From positions 9,424 to 73,423 of IMG/VR virus record IMGVR_UViG_3300048592_000616: a stretch of 64,000 bases of DNA; one strand, 5' to 3'. The notes beneath the pieces are model-generated. The model saw only the letters and a program-made list of their open reading frames with translations, was not told where the DNA came from and ran no database searches. The position numbers and the translations under genes were made by a program. The stretch comes from a virus. Numbering within the stretch: position 1 is the first letter of the stretch; every line of letters starts with the position of its first letter. This document shows, in pieces, positions 3,991-37,937 of this stretch.

Positions 3991-4014
3991 GGACCGGCGC
4001 GCAAAGGAGACACC

Positions 4015-4272
4015 GTGAGCAGCATTGATCGATACATCGAGGTTTGGAAGGACGGCGACCCGGAGGATACCACCGAGTGGCTGGTGCTGCTGATGCAAGG
4101 CGGCCAGCTGCCGGAGCCGCCGGATGCAGTCGATGTGCTGGGCACCTTCCCCACCCTCAATGAGGCCCGCGCCTTCGCCGGGCGCGAGGCGGCCGAGCGT
4201 GGGCTGGAGGTATTCGAGGAGGACTTGGGCGGCGGGTATCCCCCGGCCGCGTGGGAGGCGCGGCCGTCATGA
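4015..4272 (+). CDS. Hypothetical protein
   Basis: RBS AAGGAG, GTG start. Confidence 0.6.
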   Translation: MSSIDRYIEVWKDGDPEDTTEWLVLLMQGGQLPEPPDAVDVLGTFPTLNEARAFAGREAAERGLEVFEEDLGGGYPPAAWEARPS

Positions 4273-4652
4273 GTCTTTGCGACTTCCACCAGTGCGACCT
4301 GTGTATCTATGTGTCCCCAGCGGGCATTGAGTGCCACGTGGCGGCCGATCGGCGGGTGCAAGAGATAGGACCGGAGCCGCCCCTGCCCAGCCTGACGGCC
4401 GATGACCACGAGTGGGCCGAGTGGCGTCGCCTTTTCCACAAGTACGCCAATGAGATATTCTCGGGCGAGACCCAGCCCATCGGCGGTCCGCGCGACGGGG
4501 AACACCGCACCTTCCAGACGTGGGCCGACTTGCTGGCCTATGTGGGCGACGTGGCGGCCGATGGGTACCGCGTGCCGGACTGGGTGGTTGGGACTATCCA
4601 GAGGGAGGTGGGCAATTCGCCGCAAGCCGCACCGGCCGATAAAATACCCTAG
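4269..4652 (+). CDS. Hypothetical protein
   Basis: ATGA coupling, RBS GGAGG. Confidence 0.55.
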   Translation: MSLCDFHQCDLCIYVSPAGIECHVAADRRVQEIGPEPPLPSLTADDHEWAEWRRLFHKYANEIFSGETQPIGGPRDGEHRTFQTWADLLAYVGDVAADGYRVPDWVVGTIQREVGNSPQAAPADKIP

Positions 4653-4875
4653 CAGACTACTAACTCAAGGCCAGAAGGGCGAGACCGATGTCTCGCCTTT
4701 CTGCATCCAGGTCGCGGTTGGGATGTATGACTTTCCGCAACAACCCGACCCTGTGTAATTTTGGCCCGTTTTTTACAATGACCACCGCGGCCGTTGTAGC
4801 CGAATACACTGCCTGCCCGGTTTGCGTCTTGACGGGGCGCGGGCTTTGCGGTAGTGTATCGGAGGACTAACCAAG

Positions 4876-4955
4876 CAAGGCTTGGCATGGCCAGGCAAGG
4901 CGGGGCCAGGCCTGGCGGGGCGAGGCCCGGCCTGGCGAGGCCCGGCATGGCAGGG
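4876..4955 (+). repeat. Tandem array of 16 CNNGG pentamers
   Basis: caagg cttgg catgg ccagg caagg cgggg ccagg cctgg cgggg cgagg cccgg cctgg cgagg cccgg catgg caggg. Confidence 0.9.
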
Positions 4956-4987
4956 AAAAAGGGGACGGCTTTCTGCCGTCCCCTTTT
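4956..4987. terminator. Bidirectional intrinsic terminator
   Basis: AAAAGGGGACGGC-tttct-GCCGTCCCCTTTT. Confidence 0.85.
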
Positions 4988-4993
4988 CGTTTC

Positions 4994-7900
4994 TCACTCC
5001 GCGCAGGTGATGACCTGGCGGCGGTTGTCCGGCCGCTGGCCCGGCGCGTGGGCCTCGCTGATCTCGCTGCGCTGGCCGTCGGCCTTCGTCCAGGTCACCA
5101 GCCCGTACATCCGCGAGAAGGTCCACGTCTCCTCGACGCGGCCGTTGGGCAGCAGCCACTGCAAGAGGATGCAGTCCCCAACGAATATCCCATTGACCAT
5201 CATTGCCTTCTGCGCGGCCGCCAGGCGGATCGTTGACGGCTGGCGGCGCTCCTCGGTCGTTTGGCAGTCGGCGATCCGCTGCCAGCGCACGAGCGGGTTA
5301 CGCGGGAACGTCTCCCCCACGGCCATCCGGCGCGGTGCCCAGACGCTGCCATAGACCCCCGGCGCGCCATAGAGCGTGTACATCATCCCGCCGCCCGGCG
5401 ACGTGTCGCGGCCGCGATAGATGGCCTTGTCGTCCGCGCCGAAATGCTCCCACTCGGCCGATAGCTCGTTGCCCTTCGTCAGGTAGTACCAGCCCGGCCG
5501 GTGCGGGTCGCGCTGGGTCTGGTGGCGCGCCTGGCTGCCGCTGCTGTGGCGCACCTCGAAGAGCGGCCCACGGCCGTCCGGGCCGAGCATCCCGGTCATG
5601 TAGGGCAGGAGGTCGATCTTGGTCGGGTCGGGTGGCTGCGGCTCCGGCTTCGGCGGCTGAGGCTTGGGTGGCGTCGGCGTTGGCGTCGGTGGTTTCGGCG
5701 CGGGCAGCGCGTCCTCCGGCCCGACGACGCGGACGGCGTCCCACTCCCCCACCGGCGCGTAGTAGACCAGCGTCTCCCCGGCCCGGCCGCCCGCGCGGCG
5801 GTAGGCATAGCTCACGCCGTCGATGACCTCGCGCTGCTCATCGGAGAGCGGATAGAGACCGTCCTCCAGCATCGCCGCCTGCAAAGCGAAGGTCGGCGTG
5901 TTGGCGATCCCCGGCGCGGCCGTGCCCAGCCGCCACATTGTCTCGGCCAGCGTCGGCGGCCTCGGCTCCGGCACGCCGCGCGGGATGAGGTACGCGGCCA
6001 GGTCGTCCGCCGTGCCGTTGAAGCGGTTCAGGTCGATCCGGGCGCTTGACGCGCCATAGCTCGGCCCGTGGCCGTCGTTGGCGTACTGCCAGAAGGTCCA
6101 GCCCCGGCCGCTGGCCCACGGCTCCGGCACGAGCGGCCGCGTGCCCTTGGTCCAGTTGGCGATCCATAGGTCGAAGGCCGCGCCCCATTTCGGCGCGCCC
6201 AGGGCCGAGCGCCAGTAGCTGTAGTTGGTATAGAGGATCGGCAGCCGGTCGATACCCATCTCGTCGAGGCGTACTTGCAGGCGCTCCAGGAACTCCAACA
6301 CAAACGCCGCCCGCTCGGTCACGGTCAGGCCGTTGAAGTTCCCGTCCTCCAGGTCCAGCACCGGCGGTAGGTCGCAGCCGTGCCGCTCGATGACGGCCGC
6401 GAACGTCTCCACCTGCTCCTTGGGCGGATCGAAGAAGTGCAGGTAGTGGTAGAAGCCATAGGGTAGCCCGGCCGCCATCGCCGCCGGGGCATACTCGTCC
6501 ACCCGCTCGTCCTGGTGCTTGCCATACGACGCGCGGATGAAGGCGAAGTCAACCTTGGCGGCCGCCTTGCCAAAGTCCATCGCCCCCTGCCACTTGGAGA
6601 CGTCGATCCCGATGACCTCGCCGCCCGGCTCCGGCTTCGGCGGTTCGGGCTTCGGCGGTTCCGGCGCGGGCGGTTCGGGTTCGGTGACGGCCGCGCGCAG
6701 GGACCAGCCGTCCAGGAAGAAATTGTTGGAAATGCCCCACTCGGCCGACATGTGGACGGCCAGCTTGAGCGGCCCGCCGCCGTGGGTGAAGGCGGTCGAT
6801 ATCTCGCGGTAGACCGGCCCGGTCGCGGCCGCAGGCCAGATGTCCAGCGGCCCGGCGACGGCCTGGTCGTTGACCTTGAGCGTATAGCGCGCCGAGTTGG
6901 TCTCCACCCGGTAGTCGCGCTTCTTGTCCGTCATGCGGTAGAAGTCCAGCCAGCCGCGCCACGTGAACACGTACCGACCAGCCGGTAGGTCGGGGAACTC
7001 CTGGACCAGGCGCGCCCAGAACGGTCGCCCGCCCGCGAACAGCTTGTAACACCACTGCCCATCGCGGATGAACCGCGCCGCCTCGTCGGCCGGTAGCTGC
7101 GCGGCCGACTTGTGGACGCCCTCCGGCTCGCCATACGCCTGGCCGGAGATCGGCGACTTGCCCGTATTCCAGGCGAAGCGCCAGCCGCGCGGCTGCTGGC
7201 TGGACTGGCTGATGTCGTCCCAGCCGCCCTCAAAGCCGGGGTTGGCGAGTAGCTCGGCCGTGCCCGGCGTGGGTGGCTTCGGCGGGTCCACCGGCGACGG
7301 CGTTGGCGCGTTGTCTTTGATGCGGTCCAGCAGGGCAACCTCGACGGCCGTGCCGGAGATGTCCCACTCCTTCCACACGCCCACGCTCCCCACCGTAAAC
7401 ACGGCCGCGCCGACCACATAGTCATCCTCGCGGATGCGCCGGTCATACCAGGCCAGCATGTCGGCGTACTTCTGTGGGTCCAGACCCATCGCCCGCCATG
7501 ACCCCACCGGCGCGCCCTTCGGCGTCACCGAGGCCACATCGTCACACCCGGCCTCGGTGATGATGAGCTGCGTGTCCCCCAGTCCGGCCGGGGCCAACAC
7601 CGTGTCCCACACGTAGCGATAGCGCAGGGCAGCCCAGCCCCAGGGATAAGAGCGGTCAGGGCGGCCGTGCCACACATCGGCCGTCAGGTTGCCGTTGGCG
7701 TCCACCTGTTTCCAGCCTACCCCATAGTCGGCCTCGTAGCCCATGTACTCGTGGAGGGCGATGTAGTGGCCGTTGTCGCGGGCGTGGCGAACGGCCGGGA
7801 GCAGATGAGGCCAGATGTCCATGCTTGGCGTGCCCACGGCGAAGCTGAAGTTGGCCCGCTTCTTGCCGATGGACTCATACAGCTTCATCATCTCGATGCA

Positions 7901-8278
7901 GTAGGCGCTGTACCAGGCCGCCTCATTCGCGTTGTCCGGGGGTATCTCGTTGTCATCCTCCCACACGTCAATGCGCGGGTTGGCGGTGTAGCGGTTGACC
8001 CGCGGCCGGTTAGCCCCGGCGTAGATGTCGGTCTGCGCCGCGAACCGCACCGCGGCCGCGGCCTTCGGCGTCTCGCCGCGGTGCATCAGCGCCTTCCAGT
8101 CGGTCAACCCCAGGGCGTCGTCCTGCTGGTCCAGCTTGCCGACAACGAGCGGACCGGCCGGGACAGACGATGACGCCCCCAGCCCCATCGGGTCGAACTT
8201 GTAGAGCACCGGCCCGGCCCCGATCCACTTTGCCAGACCGGGCGAACCGATAAAGTGCGGCCCCAGCTTACTTGACAT
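4994..8278 (-). CDS. Multi-domain cell-wall hydrolase/endolysin: N-terminal GH-A-like TIM barrel, carbohydrate-binding-like domain, GH25 muramidase, C-terminal domains
   Basis: GH25 motifs GIDVSKWQG, GFYHY, VLDLE, LWIANW, FWQY, IDLN; N-terminal DNE/ALHEY/ITEAG motifs; Pro-rich linkers; RBS GGAGGA before the ATG at 8278. Confidence 0.8.
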   Translation of the reverse strand: MSSKLGPHFIGSPGLAKWIGAGPVLYKFDPMGLGASSSVPAGPLVVGKLDQQDDALGLTDWKALMHRGETPKAAAAVRFAAQTDIYAGANRPRVNRYTANPRIDVWEDDNEIPPDNANEAAWYSAYCIEMMKLYESIGKKRANFSFAVGTPSMDIWPHLLPAVRHARDNGHYIALHEYMGYEADYGVGWKQVDANGNLTADVWHGRPDRSYPWGWAALRYRYVWDTVLAPAGLGDTQLIITEAGCDDVASVTPKGAPVGSWRAMGLDPQKYADMLAWYDRRIREDDYVVGAAVFTVGSVGVWKEWDISGTAVEVALLDRIKDNAPTPSPVDPPKPPTPGTAELLANPGFEGGWDDISQSSQQPRGWRFAWNTGKSPISGQAYGEPEGVHKSAAQLPADEAARFIRDGQWCYKLFAGGRPFWARLVQEFPDLPAGRYVFTWRGWLDFYRMTDKKRDYRVETNSARYTLKVNDQAVAGPLDIWPAAATGPVYREISTAFTHGGGPLKLAVHMSAEWGISNNFFLDGWSLRAAVTEPEPPAPEPPKPEPPKPEPGGEVIGIDVSKWQGAMDFGKAAAKVDFAFIRASYGKHQDERVDEYAPAAMAAGLPYGFYHYLHFFDPPKEQVETFAAVIERHGCDLPPVLDLEDGNFNGLTVTERAAFVLEFLERLQVRLDEMGIDRLPILYTNYSYWRSALGAPKWGAAFDLWIANWTKGTRPLVPEPWASGRGWTFWQYANDGHGPSYGASSARIDLNRFNGTADDLAAYLIPRGVPEPRPPTLAETMWRLGTAAPGIANTPTFALQAAMLEDGLYPLSDEQREVIDGVSYAYRRAGGRAGETLVYYAPVGEWDAVRVVGPEDALPAPKPPTPTPTPPKPQPPKPEPQPPDPTKIDLLPYMTGMLGPDGRGPLFEVRHSSGSQARHQTQRDPHRPGWYYLTKGNELSAEWEHFGADDKAIYRGRDTSPGGGMMYTLYGAPGVYGSVWAPRRMAVGETFPRNPLVRWQRIADCQTTEERRQPSTIRLAAAQKAMMVNGIFVGDCILLQWLLPNGRVEETWTFSRMYGLVTWTKADGQRSEISEAHAPGQRPDNRRQVITCAE

Positions 8279-8524
8279 GGCATCCTCCCACGGCCGCTGC
8301 GAGGCGGCCACTGTCTCCCCCTGCTCCCGTCGTCAATTCCCGTCTGTCGCTCGAATTCATGACATCCACCTCCGGCCGATATTGTATCACAACGGTTGCG
8401 GATGGTTGCGAAGTCGGCCGGTTGGTTGCGGATTTGGGCAGCGGCCGCCCGGCACATGAACCTTACCTATACGAAGGAACAGACCGCAACCGGCGCGAAC
8501 CGGGAAGTTGATGGTTGCAGTTGG

Positions 8525-21313: not shown

Positions 21314-21543
21314 TGGCCGCGCCCACCAACTACCAGCTTCTGTGGGCGGCCACGAATGCCGTGACCGCCCTGCGCCACACGGACCCCAAGACGGCCGCGT
21401 TCGGGGCGGCCGTGGATGCGGCGCAGACCGCGGTTCGCGAGATGGACGACTTCGCGGCCGAAGATGACAACGAGTACCTGCGGGTGACGGCCTATCGGCT
21501 GCGCAAGGTCATCGACGAGATCGCCCAGGGGGTGACCGCGTGA
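21313..21543 (+). CDS. Hypothetical protein
   Basis: TGATG coupling. Confidence 0.55.
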   Translation: MAAPTNYQLLWAATNAVTALRHTDPKTAAFGAAVDAAQTAVREMDDFAAEDDNEYLRVTAYRLRKVIDEIAQGVTA

Positions 21544-22370
21544 AGCGGCTCCCCACGGCCGGACAAGGCACCATCTGGCACGGCGACTGTCTGGACCTGC
21601 TGCGCCATGTGCCGGGCGGCAGCGTCTCGTTGATTTGCACCAGCCCGCCGTATCCTAAGATGAAGGGCTTCGACCTTGACGGGGAGCAGTGGCTGGATTG
21701 GTTCGTCGGCTGGGCCGACACGGCCGTCGCCGCGATGAAGCCCAACGGGGTCTTTGTGCTGAACATTTGGTTCGGCCGGGAAGACGACGGCTTCGCCGGG
21801 TCAGGGATGTTCGAGATTCCGCGCCTGGCCGAGTCGTTGGGGTTGCGCTTGCTGGACACCTACATTTATGCCAAGCCCAACCCGGCTCCGAACGGGCCAT
21901 TGACTTACTGCGACCCGCCGGGGTGGGAACCGATCTGGGTGTTCACCAATGCCCGCGATCCGCGCGACGTGACGTTCAACCCTTACCGCAAGGCATATGC
22001 GGCCAAGTCGCTGCGGGCCAACGGTGCGGTGTATACGACGCGTTCCCAGTCGGCCGATGCCCATCCGAAGGGCGCGCGGCAGACAACGCTAATGACCATG
22101 AGCAAGAGCGCCGACCAGAACCGGCCGAAGGCCAAGGGTATCAGCTTCCCGCGCGATCTGCCGCGCCGGTTCATCGGCCAGTATACAAACCCCGGTGAGT
22201 TGGTTCTGGACCCGTTTGCCGGAGTAGGGACCACCGTGCGCGTCGCGGTAGAGATGGGGCGCGCCGGTCTGGGTATTGAGATCGACGAAGACGAGGCGGC
22301 CAAGGCCCGCGAGTGGATCGCGGAGCCAATGCAGGGTTCGTTGCTGAAGAAGGTACCTGATGTTCATTGA
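21540..22370 (+). CDS. Beta-class N4-cytosine/N6-adenine DNA methyltransferase
   Basis: HGDCL, TSPPY (motif IV), VLDPFAGVGTT (motif I). Confidence 0.92.
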   Translation: MKRLPTAGQGTIWHGDCLDLLRHVPGGSVSLICTSPPYPKMKGFDLDGEQWLDWFVGWADTAVAAMKPNGVFVLNIWFGREDDGFAGSGMFEIPRLAESLGLRLLDTYIYAKPNPAPNGPLTYCDPPGWEPIWVFTNARDPRDVTFNPYRKAYAAKSLRANGAVYTTRSQSADAHPKGARQTTLMTMSKSADQNRPKAKGISFPRDLPRRFIGQYTNPGELVLDPFAGVGTTVRVAVEMGRAGLGIEIDEDEAAKAREWIAEPMQGSLLKKVPDVH

Positions 22371-23469
22371 CGACGCCGAACTGGAACGGGAGTATCACCC
22401 GGCCGCCCAGCTACTCCCGATGATGGAAGGTGATGATTACGCCGCTTTCCGCGACGATATCAACGCCCACGGCCTGTTGGAACCGATCTGGCTTTCCGAG
22501 GACGGCCGTATCCTAGACGGCCGCAACCGGCATCGCGCTTGCCTCGACCTGGGCATCGCGCCCGTCTTCCGCACATACACCGGCGACAGTCCGACGGCCT
22601 TTGCCCTCAGCCTCAACGCGCACCGGCGACACCTGACGGCCAGCCAACGCGCAGTGCTGGCTGTCGCGGCCCTGCCGGGGCTGGAGGCTGACGCGAAGGC
22701 ACGCCAATCCCACGGCCGTACCGCGCCCGGCCGAACGCTCCCGGCAATCTTGCCGGAAGCGTTCCCTGACGGCGGCGAGGCCCGCGAGCAGGCAGCGGCC
22801 ATAGTGGGGGCAAGCGCTCGCTATGTCAGCGACGCCAAGCGCCTGGCGGCAGAAGCGCCGGACCTGCTGGAAAGCGTGCGCGTTGGGGGCATGACGATCC
22901 CCCAGGCCAAGCGCGAACTGGTGGCCCGCGAACGCCGCGACGCCCCGCCGCTGCCGACGGACAAGTACCGCGTTCTCTACGCCGACCCGCCCTGGAGCTA
23001 TGGCAACAGCGGCATCATTGGCGACACCGACCATTACGGGCGCGTCGGCCGTCATTACCCGTCGATGACCATCGCGGAGCTGTGCGCCCTGCCGATCCGC
23101 GACATGGTCGAAGACAACGCGGTACTCTTTATGTGGGTGACGTCGCCGCTCCTGGCCGAGTGCTTTGAGGTCATCCGCGCCTGGGGCTTCACCTACAAGA
23201 CCTCGTTCGTCTGGGACAAGGTGCGGCACAACTTCGGCCACTACAACAGCGTCCGCCACGAGCTGCTGCTGGTGTGCACCCGCGGCAGTTGCACGCCGGA
23301 CGCCCCGACGCTCTACGACAGCGTCCAGACCATCGAGCGCTCCGACGTCCACAGTGAAAAGCCGGAGGCGTTCCGGGAGATCATCGACGCCCTGTATCCC
23401 CACGGCCGTCGCCTGGAGTTATTCGCCCGGCGCGACGCCGCGGGCTGGGAGACCTGGGGTAATGAGTAA
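22360..23469 (+). CDS. ParB-like domain fused to MT-A70 adenine methyltransferase
   Basis: ILDGRNR, N..RRHLTASQR; YADPPW, LFMWVT, HSEKP, LELFAR, WETWGNE. Confidence 0.9.
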   Translation: MFIDDAELEREYHPAAQLLPMMEGDDYAAFRDDINAHGLLEPIWLSEDGRILDGRNRHRACLDLGIAPVFRTYTGDSPTAFALSLNAHRRHLTASQRAVLAVAALPGLEADAKARQSHGRTAPGRTLPAILPEAFPDGGEAREQAAAIVGASARYVSDAKRLAAEAPDLLESVRVGGMTIPQAKRELVARERRDAPPLPTDKYRVLYADPPWSYGNSGIIGDTDHYGRVGRHYPSMTIAELCALPIRDMVEDNAVLFMWVTSPLLAECFEVIRAWGFTYKTSFVWDKVRHNFGHYNSVRHELLLVCTRGSCTPDAPTLYDSVQTIERSDVHSEKPEAFREIIDALYPHGRRLELFARRDAAGWETWGNE

Positions 23470-37450: not shown

Positions 37451-37526
37451 TCTCGCCTCTGACATCTGATCGCCCGGCGGCCGGTTGCACACCGATCGGC
37501 CGCCGGGTTTGGAGAGTCCAACCACC

Positions 37527-37937
37527 ATGCAATATGTGACCGTAACCAACCCGACCGATGGCCTGCTGATGCTGGCCGGGGCGTATCTGTTCCCCGGCGA
37601 GTCGCGGGCGGTGCATCCGGCGCTGGCCGCGCAGGCCCTCGCCGACAGCCCCGCCCTGGTCATCGTGGACGCGGAACCATCTCTGGCTGGGGAGCCGGAA
37701 GACACTGACGGCGACAAGACGGCCGATGACAAGACGACCGACGACGAGACGGCCGACGACGAGACGGCCGACGACGAGACGGCCGACGACGAGACGGCCG
37801 ACGAGAACGCGCCGGAGTTGACGGCGCTGGCGTCGCTGTCGAAGGCGGAGCTGGTCGTGCTGGCCGAGGAAAAGGGTCTCGAGGTCGGCCGGGCCACGAA
37901 GTCGGAGATCATCGAACTGATCGAAGCGGCCGAGTAA
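37527..37937 (+). CDS. Head-associated protein with acidic repeats and C-terminal HeH/Rho-N-like motif
   Basis: DETAD repeats; LSKAELVVLAEEKGL...TKSEII. Confidence 0.65.
   Translation: MQYVTVTNPTDGLLMLAGAYLFPGESRAVHPALAAQALADSPALVIVDAEPSLAGEPEDTDGDKTADDKTTDDETADDETADDETADDETADENAPELTALASLSKAELVVLAEEKGLEVGRATKSEIIELIEAAE
37713..37802 (+). repeat. 15-bp coding tandem repeat (6 units)
   Basis: GACGAGACGGCCGAC x4 exact plus 2 degenerate units. Confidence 0.9.

Follow-up and report, generated by a model that had tools for sequence, protein, structure and literature searches.

What is made from a run of 16 uninterrupted CNNGG pentamers lying between two genes of a phage, and on what could it act? 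The run is found in a window of 64,000 nucleotides, by which we mean the whole stretch of DNA analysed here. This window comes from a 73,423-base IMG/VR record (65.6% GC, ~72% complete according to CheckV, linear and without end repeats), whose gene content includes DnaB, methyltransferases, a terminase, head genes and siphovirus-type tail genes. The kind of element is already known from VIPR, the subject of three bioRxiv preprints of 2026, and the array is very probably a further vrRNA, in what we read as the solo, vipr-targeting form. We put the probability of the full reading, in which a solo vrRNA targets vipr and serves against VIPR, at about 0.6.

In the available portions of the preprints, VIPR is composed of a minimal RAMP protein, Vipr (~20 kDa), and of vrRNAs with 9 to 16 YNNGG repeats and a structured 3' tail, in which GGY is conserved and NN is hypervariable (10.64898/2026.04.26.720920). 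Double-stranded DNA is recognised through NN, one base being skipped per unit, and transcription is repressed; in nature this is directed at competing phages, prophages and satellites (10.64898/2026.04.26.720920). Cryo-EM showed a helical filament with one Vipr protomer per repeat, where the contact with G1 of GGY is made by residue H17 in SUSP1 Vipr (10.64898/2026.04.26.720927). According to the available part of the third preprint, 'solo' vrRNAs, which depend on Vipr borrowed in trans, are present in satellites and in 346 VIPR-null Enterobacteriaceae phages; an array counts as solo when its contig has no Vipr or when the closest Vipr is more than 20 kb away (10.64898/2026.10.15.759431). Solo vrRNAs are directed at the vipr gene (in its early or late codons), at the vrRNAs of other phages, at satellites or at host REP decoys, and ~90% of the vipr-targeting ones are wobble-aligned (10.64898/2026.10.15.759431). 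The features of the present locus are as follows.

4251-4652, + strand: hypothetical ORF of 133 amino acids without a family match, the upstream neighbour
4779-4995, + strand: 217-bp cassette with promoter-like site, repeat tract and terminator, an indel relative to a close relative
4829-4857, + strand: promoter-like site by direct reading, TTGACG (4829-4834), 17-nt spacer and TAGTGT (4852-4857), a putative promoter
4876-4955, + strand: repeat tract of the probable vrRNA, 16 CNNGG units, by direct reading and regex
4956-4987, no strand assigned: 3' tail and bidirectional intrinsic terminator, by direct reading and folding
4994-8311, - strand: endolysin of 1105 amino acids with a GH25 core (PF01183, E = 4.1e-27; endolysin PHROGs), the convergent neighbour

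Direct reading and a regex both returned C..GG perfect in 16/16 units of the array (4876-4955, + strand). Units 1 to 8 are CAAGG CTTGG CATGG CCAGG CAAGG CGGGG CCAGG CCTGG and units 9 to 16 are CGGGG CGAGG CCCGG CCTGG CGAGG CCCGG CATGG CAGGG. The resulting NN series, AA TT AT CA AA GG CA CT GG GA CC CT GA CC AT AG, holds nine distinct dinucleotides. In the GGYNN register the array consists of 15 complete GGC-NN units plus the first NN, which is preceded by AGC. It is the only CNNGG run of at least four units on either strand of the window (regex scan), and no other YNNGG run in the 73.4-kb record exceeds four units. On the + strand a CNNGG begins at 3.3% of the positions, so that by our arithmetic 16 consecutive units would occur with a probability of ~2e-24 and chance is excluded. 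Tandem Repeats Finder reported periods of 5, 15 and 20 with scores of 39 to 68. No Rfam family at the gathering threshold and no tRNA or tmRNA were found in the window, and blastn of positions 4000-6000 against GenBank phages returned no match.

Two other tandem repeats of the record differ in kind. A 12-nt repeat of ~13 copies (YGGKMCGCCGCA) lies upstream of the window, at 775-935 of L173 (G000:C1), in the 3' end of ORF 415-996, and is not a pentamer array. A 15-nt repeat at 37712-37804 of the window (6.2 copies, 93% matches) lies inside ORF 37485-37937, among the head genes, and encodes an acidic (DDETA)n stretch.

The array occupies a 340-nt gap between ORF 4251-4652 (+) and the endolysin gene (-). 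The sequence-only reading had described a promoter-like TTGACG-N17-TAGTGT upstream of the 16 units and a strong A5-hairpin-T4 terminator behind them, and direct reading bears out all three. A sigma-70 consensus scan of 4000-6000 called no site at all, and it passed over TTGACG-N17-TAGTGT because TAGTGT matches TATAAT at three of six positions; against the E. coli consensus this is a weak -10 element (3/6). The terminator is composed of A5 (4956-4960), the stem arm GGGGACGGC (4961-4969), the loop TTTCT, the stem arm GCCGTCCCC (4975-4983) and T4 (4984-4987). Its hairpin (4961-4983) begins 6 nt past the last unit and folds with -25.0 kcal/mol in a 45-nt context. A terminator scan did not call this hairpin, probably because the A and T runs lengthen the stem beyond the rule of the tool. 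For the putative transcript 4864-4992 the predicted energy is -78.4 kcal/mol, which 200 shuffles place at z = -4.9. Among the sequencing runs listed as containing this DNA, none is of RNA. Another strong hairpin terminator (~4671-4703, -24.9 kcal/mol) directly follows ORF 4251-4652, so that, together with the terminator at 4956-4987, the cassette is insulated on both sides. The stop codon of the endolysin gene lies 7 nt past the T-tract.

A coding role of the array was considered and rejected. The open + frames over it cross the terminator and run antisense into the endolysin gene, in agreement with the earlier statement that there is no credible ORF; arrays elsewhere are interrupted by frame-shifting 4-nt CAGG units, and the region is missing from a close relative. 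The locus is thus best described as a non-coding small-RNA gene reaching from a putative promoter to a terminator, as had been proposed, and this description agrees with the vrRNA genes of the available VIPR texts. The same holds for the proposed selection for a period of 5 nt in which GGC is constant and NN can vary (10.64898/2026.04.26.720920, 10.64898/2026.04.26.720927, in their available portions).

Several further genes of the window deserve mention. The endolysin gene is the only long minus-strand gene in an otherwise rightward-transcribed record, and the N- and C-terminal parts on either side of its GH25 core (residues 569-748) are long and lack annotation. At 21-1914 a gene for an RtcB RNA ligase (PF01139, E = 5.5e-101) precedes a DUF5662 gene; genes for RNA repair are often interpreted as a counter-defence that offsets the action of tRNA nucleases. 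ORF 22360-23466 combines ParB-like N-terminal matches with a DNA methyltransferase C-terminal part and adjoins a second methyltransferase gene at 21540-22370.

We then asked where arrays of this grammar are found. A scan of IMG/VR for (CNNGG)x10, the kind of regex search that the sequence-only reading had suggested, returned at least 120 contig stretches. Among the matches listed, the contigs have 39-76% GC and variable NN, and often carry several arrays. As a rule these arrays lie between genes, and behind them comes a ribosome-binding site with ATG, a hairpin or a T-arm-like element. The last of these, a GGTTCGA..CC element downstream of the arrays in L018, L022, L073 and L083, resembles the T-arm of tRNAs and may represent the pseudoknot tail in some of the VIPR clades. 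With a profile that took the 195-aa protein of phage SUSP1 as its seed, a Vipr homolog was detected in 84 of the 120 listed stretches. Of 85 loci among these listed matches, 84 have the array on the same strand as vipr; the distance between the two has a median of 21 nt and is at most 730 nt. Arrays situated in the reading frame of conserved proteins would have spoken against a small RNA, and this was not the pattern observed. The Vipr proteins fall in phrog_4652. In SUSP1 itself (KT454805.2), TNNGG arrays flank the 195-aa and 146-aa genes (vipr-vap1), which agrees with the available account of that phage (10.64898/2026.04.26.720920).

The array of the window fits this family. vrRNAs have at least four and typically 9 to 16 YNNGG units with invariant GGY and variable NN, as observed here. 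When compared with 283 vipr-adjacent arrays (median 11 units, 95th percentile 20, Y being C in 3176 of 3388 units), it lies within their range in unit number, C at Y and NN diversity. GC hairpins directly after arrays are also present in VIPR+ loci of the clade that it is predicted to target, for example L198, L223 and L196. We consider it very probable that 4876-4955 is a vrRNA-type element.

As far as the available texts describe type II VIPR (Escherichia phage SUSP1 and a P. fulva prophage; 10.64898/2026.04.26.720920, 10.64898/2026.04.26.720927), the locus shares its 9-16 YNNGG units with invariant GGY and variable NN and, as a predicted RNA, its size of ~100 nt; its 3' hairpin may correspond to the structured 3' end. 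It differs in the lack of vipr or vap beside the array or in the 73 kb and in the lack of a pseudoknot tail. The Y position also differs, being always C in this array and mostly T in SUSP1.

The absence of vipr was assessed in several ways. A six-frame local HMM search for Vipr found none in the 73.4-kb record (best E = 1.4), nor did phrog_4652 or the profiles A1 and A2 match it; these profiles may miss divergent Vipr types, and A1 detects Vipr in six other records. In the same record, hhalign for a divergent RAMP gave probabilities below 1% throughout, a G-loop regex matched in spurious frames only, and PHROG and Pfam annotation of the 71 ORFs assigned none to phrog_4652. Canonical arrays lie beside vipr, often with vap, whereas the genes near this one encode hypothetical proteins, a lipoprotein and the endolysin. 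Since there is no vipr beside the array or in the record, this is not a canonical VIPR locus. By the published definition the lack of Vipr makes it a solo (orphan) vrRNA, on a contig that is ~72% complete and reaches 14.3 kb upstream of the array.

An alternative is a native vrRNA of a VIPR+ phage, which we regard as unlikely. In this explanation vipr would sit in the missing ~28% of the genome and the array would be a distal guide gene with its own promoter. The incompleteness and linear form of the record, its lack of end repeats and the short upstream sequence favour such an arrangement, as does a complete genome (G023, L118/L119) with arrays ~10 kb from vipr. VIPR+ phages, too, are reported to carry guides against other VIPR systems (10.64898/2026.04.26.720920; 10.64898/2026.10.15.759431, in their available portions). 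Against it, the nearest array is at most 730 nt from vipr in the 85 VIPR+ loci among the matches listed. The array is, moreover, already solo by the definition in the available preprint text unless vipr lies 14-20 kb upstream (10.64898/2026.10.15.759431). When we searched 20 whole records that contain a Vipr-free array stretch, five had Vipr elsewhere and 15 had no detectable Vipr. Those 15 include two complete genomes with terminal repeats, G003 and G004, so that arrays without detectable Vipr do occur in complete genomes. The arrays concerned are a 10-unit array directly after a DnaC-like loader gene (L042, 10307-10356, in G003) and an 18-unit array (L054, 3461-3550, in G004); neither guide had a scoring match to vipr genes.

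A solo vrRNA should have a target elsewhere. We scanned for targets as published, that is ungapped, on both strands, with the NN dinucleotides joined by one wildcard and with shuffled guides as the null. The best match to a vipr CDS is 26/32 (0.81), or 26/30 (0.87) in the 15-unit GGYNN register, and the shuffled guides reach a maximum of 22 to 24 of 32. This best identity, 81%, is just over the published threshold of 80%, and the locus that gives 26/32 (L186/L189) was first fetched by a guide-derived pattern, so that only the matches of 24/32 and 25/32 are free of that bias. With a 1-nt-skip identity of at least 0.8, above the null, it belongs to a known class of solo targets, the vipr CDS. 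The best-matching vipr lies on a VIPR+ contig of 66.7% GC (65.6% in the window), with an array directly upstream.

The signal persisted in sets of different origin. In 89 vipr CDS gathered without the guide, the best match is 24/32 (0.75), compared to a null of 19.5 +/- 0.8 (z = 5.7). In the 15-unit register it is 24/30 (0.80), z varies between 5.7 and 6.3 across registers, and none of the shuffles reached 24 in two runs (0/1000 and 0/500). In 153-154 vipr CDS the best match is 25-26/32 (z = 6.7-7.4), and 26/30 in the GGYNN register (z = 8.9). Throughout 1.1 Mb of array loci, all six matches of at least 23/32 fall at one homologous N-terminal vipr site, in frame; over the same 1.1 Mb, 200 shuffled guides had a maximum of at least 24 once and a mean of 0.04 matches of at least 23. 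Skip rules of 0, 2 and 3 nt gave 18-20, which is the level of the null. At least 22/32 is reached by 37 of the 154 sampled vipr genes, and these 37 matches all have the sense orientation. Of 80 further vipr loci, which were retrieved with a Vipr peptide pattern, 72 have the N-terminal site as the best match of the whole locus.

Only 2 of 243 other arrays reach z >= 4 against vipr genes, and a vipr match is therefore not a general property of such repeats. None of the 30 other solo arrays of the IMG/VR sample reaches z >= 4 against vipr genes, so that targeting of vipr is not generalisable from that sample. There is no self-target in the phage's own record, where the best 1-nt-skip match is 20/32. 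Two seeds of eight NN each (half-guides) found 18 and 19 stretches in IMG/VR, with a best match of 22/32 and no perfect target, and the full 16-NN pattern had no occurrence in JGI metagenome contigs or GTDB genomes. A 10-NN seed returned two matches in metagenome contigs and four in GTDB. All of these lie in one conserved host gene (HKGHLGDPLE), and at 23-24/32, a chance level, this candidate was rejected.

Written as codons, the guide reads x-(F/L)-(I/M)-(H/Q)-(N/K)-G-(H/Q)-L-G-(D/E)-P-L-(D/E)-P-(I/M)-(S/R). The consensus of the targeted clade, the N-terminus of SUSP1-like Vipr, is L-L/V-M-H-N-G-R/Q-L-A-D-P-L-D/N-P, and the conserved motif at the target is L-MHNG-L-DPLDP of SUSP1-like vipr genes. 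The skipped bases are the codon wobble positions of the target, and the matches translate in frame. H16 and N17 are invariant in A2, and the H of the motif aligns with SUSP1 H17. The guide positions Q and G face R and A in most Viprs. Of the 611 Vipr relatives found, 120 were listed, and the best among these fit 12 of the 16 codon classes when compared as proteins. Since the NN code corresponds to a conserved Vipr N-terminal motif, the most likely function, judged from sequence, is that of an anti-VIPR guide that would use borrowed Vipr against the vipr gene of a rival. For a native vrRNA the same target would be a hazard, as a guide against the most conserved codons risks silencing the phage's own vipr if it is of the same clade.

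The solo element is also discrete in the genome. In a close relative, represented by contigs of 6508 and 5282 nt from runs X3 and X4 (two other activated-sludge studies) that align to 4640-4778 and 4996-5599, position 4778 is followed by 31 unrelated bases and then by 4996, and the 217-bp cassette is missing. The cassette is a discrete module, present in one of two close relatives and absent from the other, through gain or loss. Other contigs with GGCNN arrays occur in the same activated-sludge runs, at depths of up to ~48, which indicates that elements of the same repeat grammar share the habitat. An endolysin-based search for relatives of the phage returned none, and a TerL-based search returned five fragments, none with Vipr. 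The tail and leader of the array had no similarity to the sampled array loci (blastn-short), and in IMG/VR the pattern of four units followed by AAAAAGGGG returned no array with the same start of the tail. As the tail has no sequence relative, the donor Vipr clade cannot be named from it. A distant relative (L182, 37% terminase identity) carries two YNNGG arrays, 5111-5172 and 5750-5819, around an AT-rich insert; no Vipr was found in its 38-kb record (45% complete).

Dispensability in the close relative, together with the imperfect target match of 81%, could be taken as the sign of a non-functional remnant, such as a decaying vrRNA copy, or of simple tandem duplication by slippage. The array indeed has some period-15 structure: at lag 3, 4 of the 13 NN pairs are identical (31%), around the 96th percentile of arrays with at least 12 units, and the period of 15 in Tandem Repeats Finder comes with 83-87% matches. 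A comparable lag identity is nevertheless present in 14% of 114 arrays (at least 12 units) of Vipr-encoding loci. Decay is also at odds with the absence of any degenerate unit, with the intact promoter-like site and strong terminator, and with an NN string that still fits a specific site of a conserved gene (z >= 5.7). We therefore judge a remnant or slippage product to be quite improbable.

The sequence-only reading had drawn an analogy to Bacillus TRAP and proposed a ring-shaped RNA-binding protein or a defence protein as the partner of the RNA. TRAP sites of the Bacillus trp leader are 9 to 11 GAG/UAG triplets, 2-3 nt apart, bound by an 11-mer ring. The present array resembles them in its periodic triplet, its short variable spacers and in the one protein subunit expected per triplet. 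It differs in the triplet itself, since GGC is fixed in 16/16 units (the GGY kind) and (G/U)AG in none, in the predicted RAMP filament that takes the place of the 11-mer ring, and in spacers that would be informative for DNA recognition. The idea of repeated protein binding thus stands, with one protomer per repeat as in the available VIPR texts (10.64898/2026.04.26.720920, 10.64898/2026.04.26.720927), and the ring does not. A repeat unrelated to VIPR, be it a TRAP-like ring sponge, a two-tier G-quadruplex or a CCNGG restriction or methylation decoy, could in principle draw on the GG-N3 spacing for two-quartet G4s, on CCAGG, CCTGG and CCCGG among the units and on the lack of Vipr in this contig and in the 15 records above, yet it is scarcely credible given the tight linkage of the same grammar to vipr in the listed IMG/VR stretches, the experimental evidence in the available preprint sections that YNNGG repeats are a Vipr-bound guide (10.64898/2026.04.26.720920, 10.64898/2026.04.26.720927), CCNGG in only 6 of 16 units, and an NN order that fits vipr codons far above shuffles under the 1-nt skip alone, which none of these options predicts. 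The quadruplex and the restriction decoy are not needed once the variable NN are read as a gapped guide for double-stranded DNA. The idea of a sponge, which fails in its original form, survives in so far as a solo vrRNA would compete for and redirect a rival's Vipr (10.64898/2026.10.15.759431, available portion). The interpretation first given to the locus is in this way partly supported.

On the anti-VIPR reading, the stand-alone gene would produce a vrRNA of ~120 nt, from its own promoter-like site to the hairpin. As the contig has no Vipr, the solo vrRNA must borrow the protein in trans, presumably from a co-infecting or resident VIPR+ element. Each GGY would be held by one Vipr protomer, giving a helical filament that presents the NN to double-stranded DNA, where every third target base is skipped and binding would repress transcription. 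Loaded onto the Vipr of a rival, the guide would thus silence the rival's own vipr gene, and the rival's own guides would perhaps be diluted too. The phage carrying the cassette would be expected to benefit.

This arrangement has precedents. Like the solo vrRNAs of VIPR-null phages and F5 satellites in the available part of the preprint, the array is of the GGYNN type, is followed by a tail, has neither vipr nor vap on its contig and would rely on Vipr borrowed in trans, and its predicted target is the early codons of a rival vipr, wobble-aligned and without a self-target (10.64898/2026.10.15.759431). The published cases, in that same part, are found in SUSP1-family Enterobacteriaceae phages, at the site of a vipr-vap1 deletion, with tails that match the SUSP1 pseudoknot tail (10.64898/2026.10.15.759431). 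Here, in contrast, the carrier is an unrelated siphovirus-like activated-sludge phage of 65.6% GC, the tail is a plain terminator hairpin, and the array belongs to a self-contained promoter-to-terminator cassette of 217 bp that is entirely missing from a close relative. There is also a likeness to RNA anti-CRISPRs and phage mini CRISPR arrays ('dummy' crRNAs), which are guide-like phage RNAs without an effector that exploit the effector of another (10.64898/2026.10.15.759431, as far as its available text covers them). Unlike these, the element would act through Vipr and not Cas, has a pentamer scaffold and not repeat-spacer units, and would be directed by phage against phage, not against host immunity.

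VIPR is a newly described RNA-guided DNA-silencing system that is proposed to predate CRISPR, and its solo guides have so far been documented, in the available literature, in Enterobacteriaceae phages and satellites. Three points are of moderate interest here: the carrier has no relation to the enterobacterial phages of the published cases, the guide forms a self-contained cassette that behaves as an indel, and its predicted target is in the codons of the motif that reads the scaffold. If true, our reading extends the vipr-targeting solo guides to an unrelated high-GC phage of activated sludge. The codons that it would target encode the histidine motif that reads GGY, and mutations to escape there should be costly. 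More tentatively, and with odds that we place somewhat below even, solo vrRNAs beyond SUSP1-like enterobacterial phages may travel as portable promoter-guide-terminator cassettes of ~220 bp that are gained or lost by a single indel, the present one being tuned to the clade-wide invariant codons of Vipr and not to a single rival gene. In that event one guide, by skipping wobble positions and relying on invariant codons, could silence vipr across a whole clade of competitors. The locus provides a concrete guide-target pair for asking whether phages turn borrowed Vipr on its owner outside the E. coli model.
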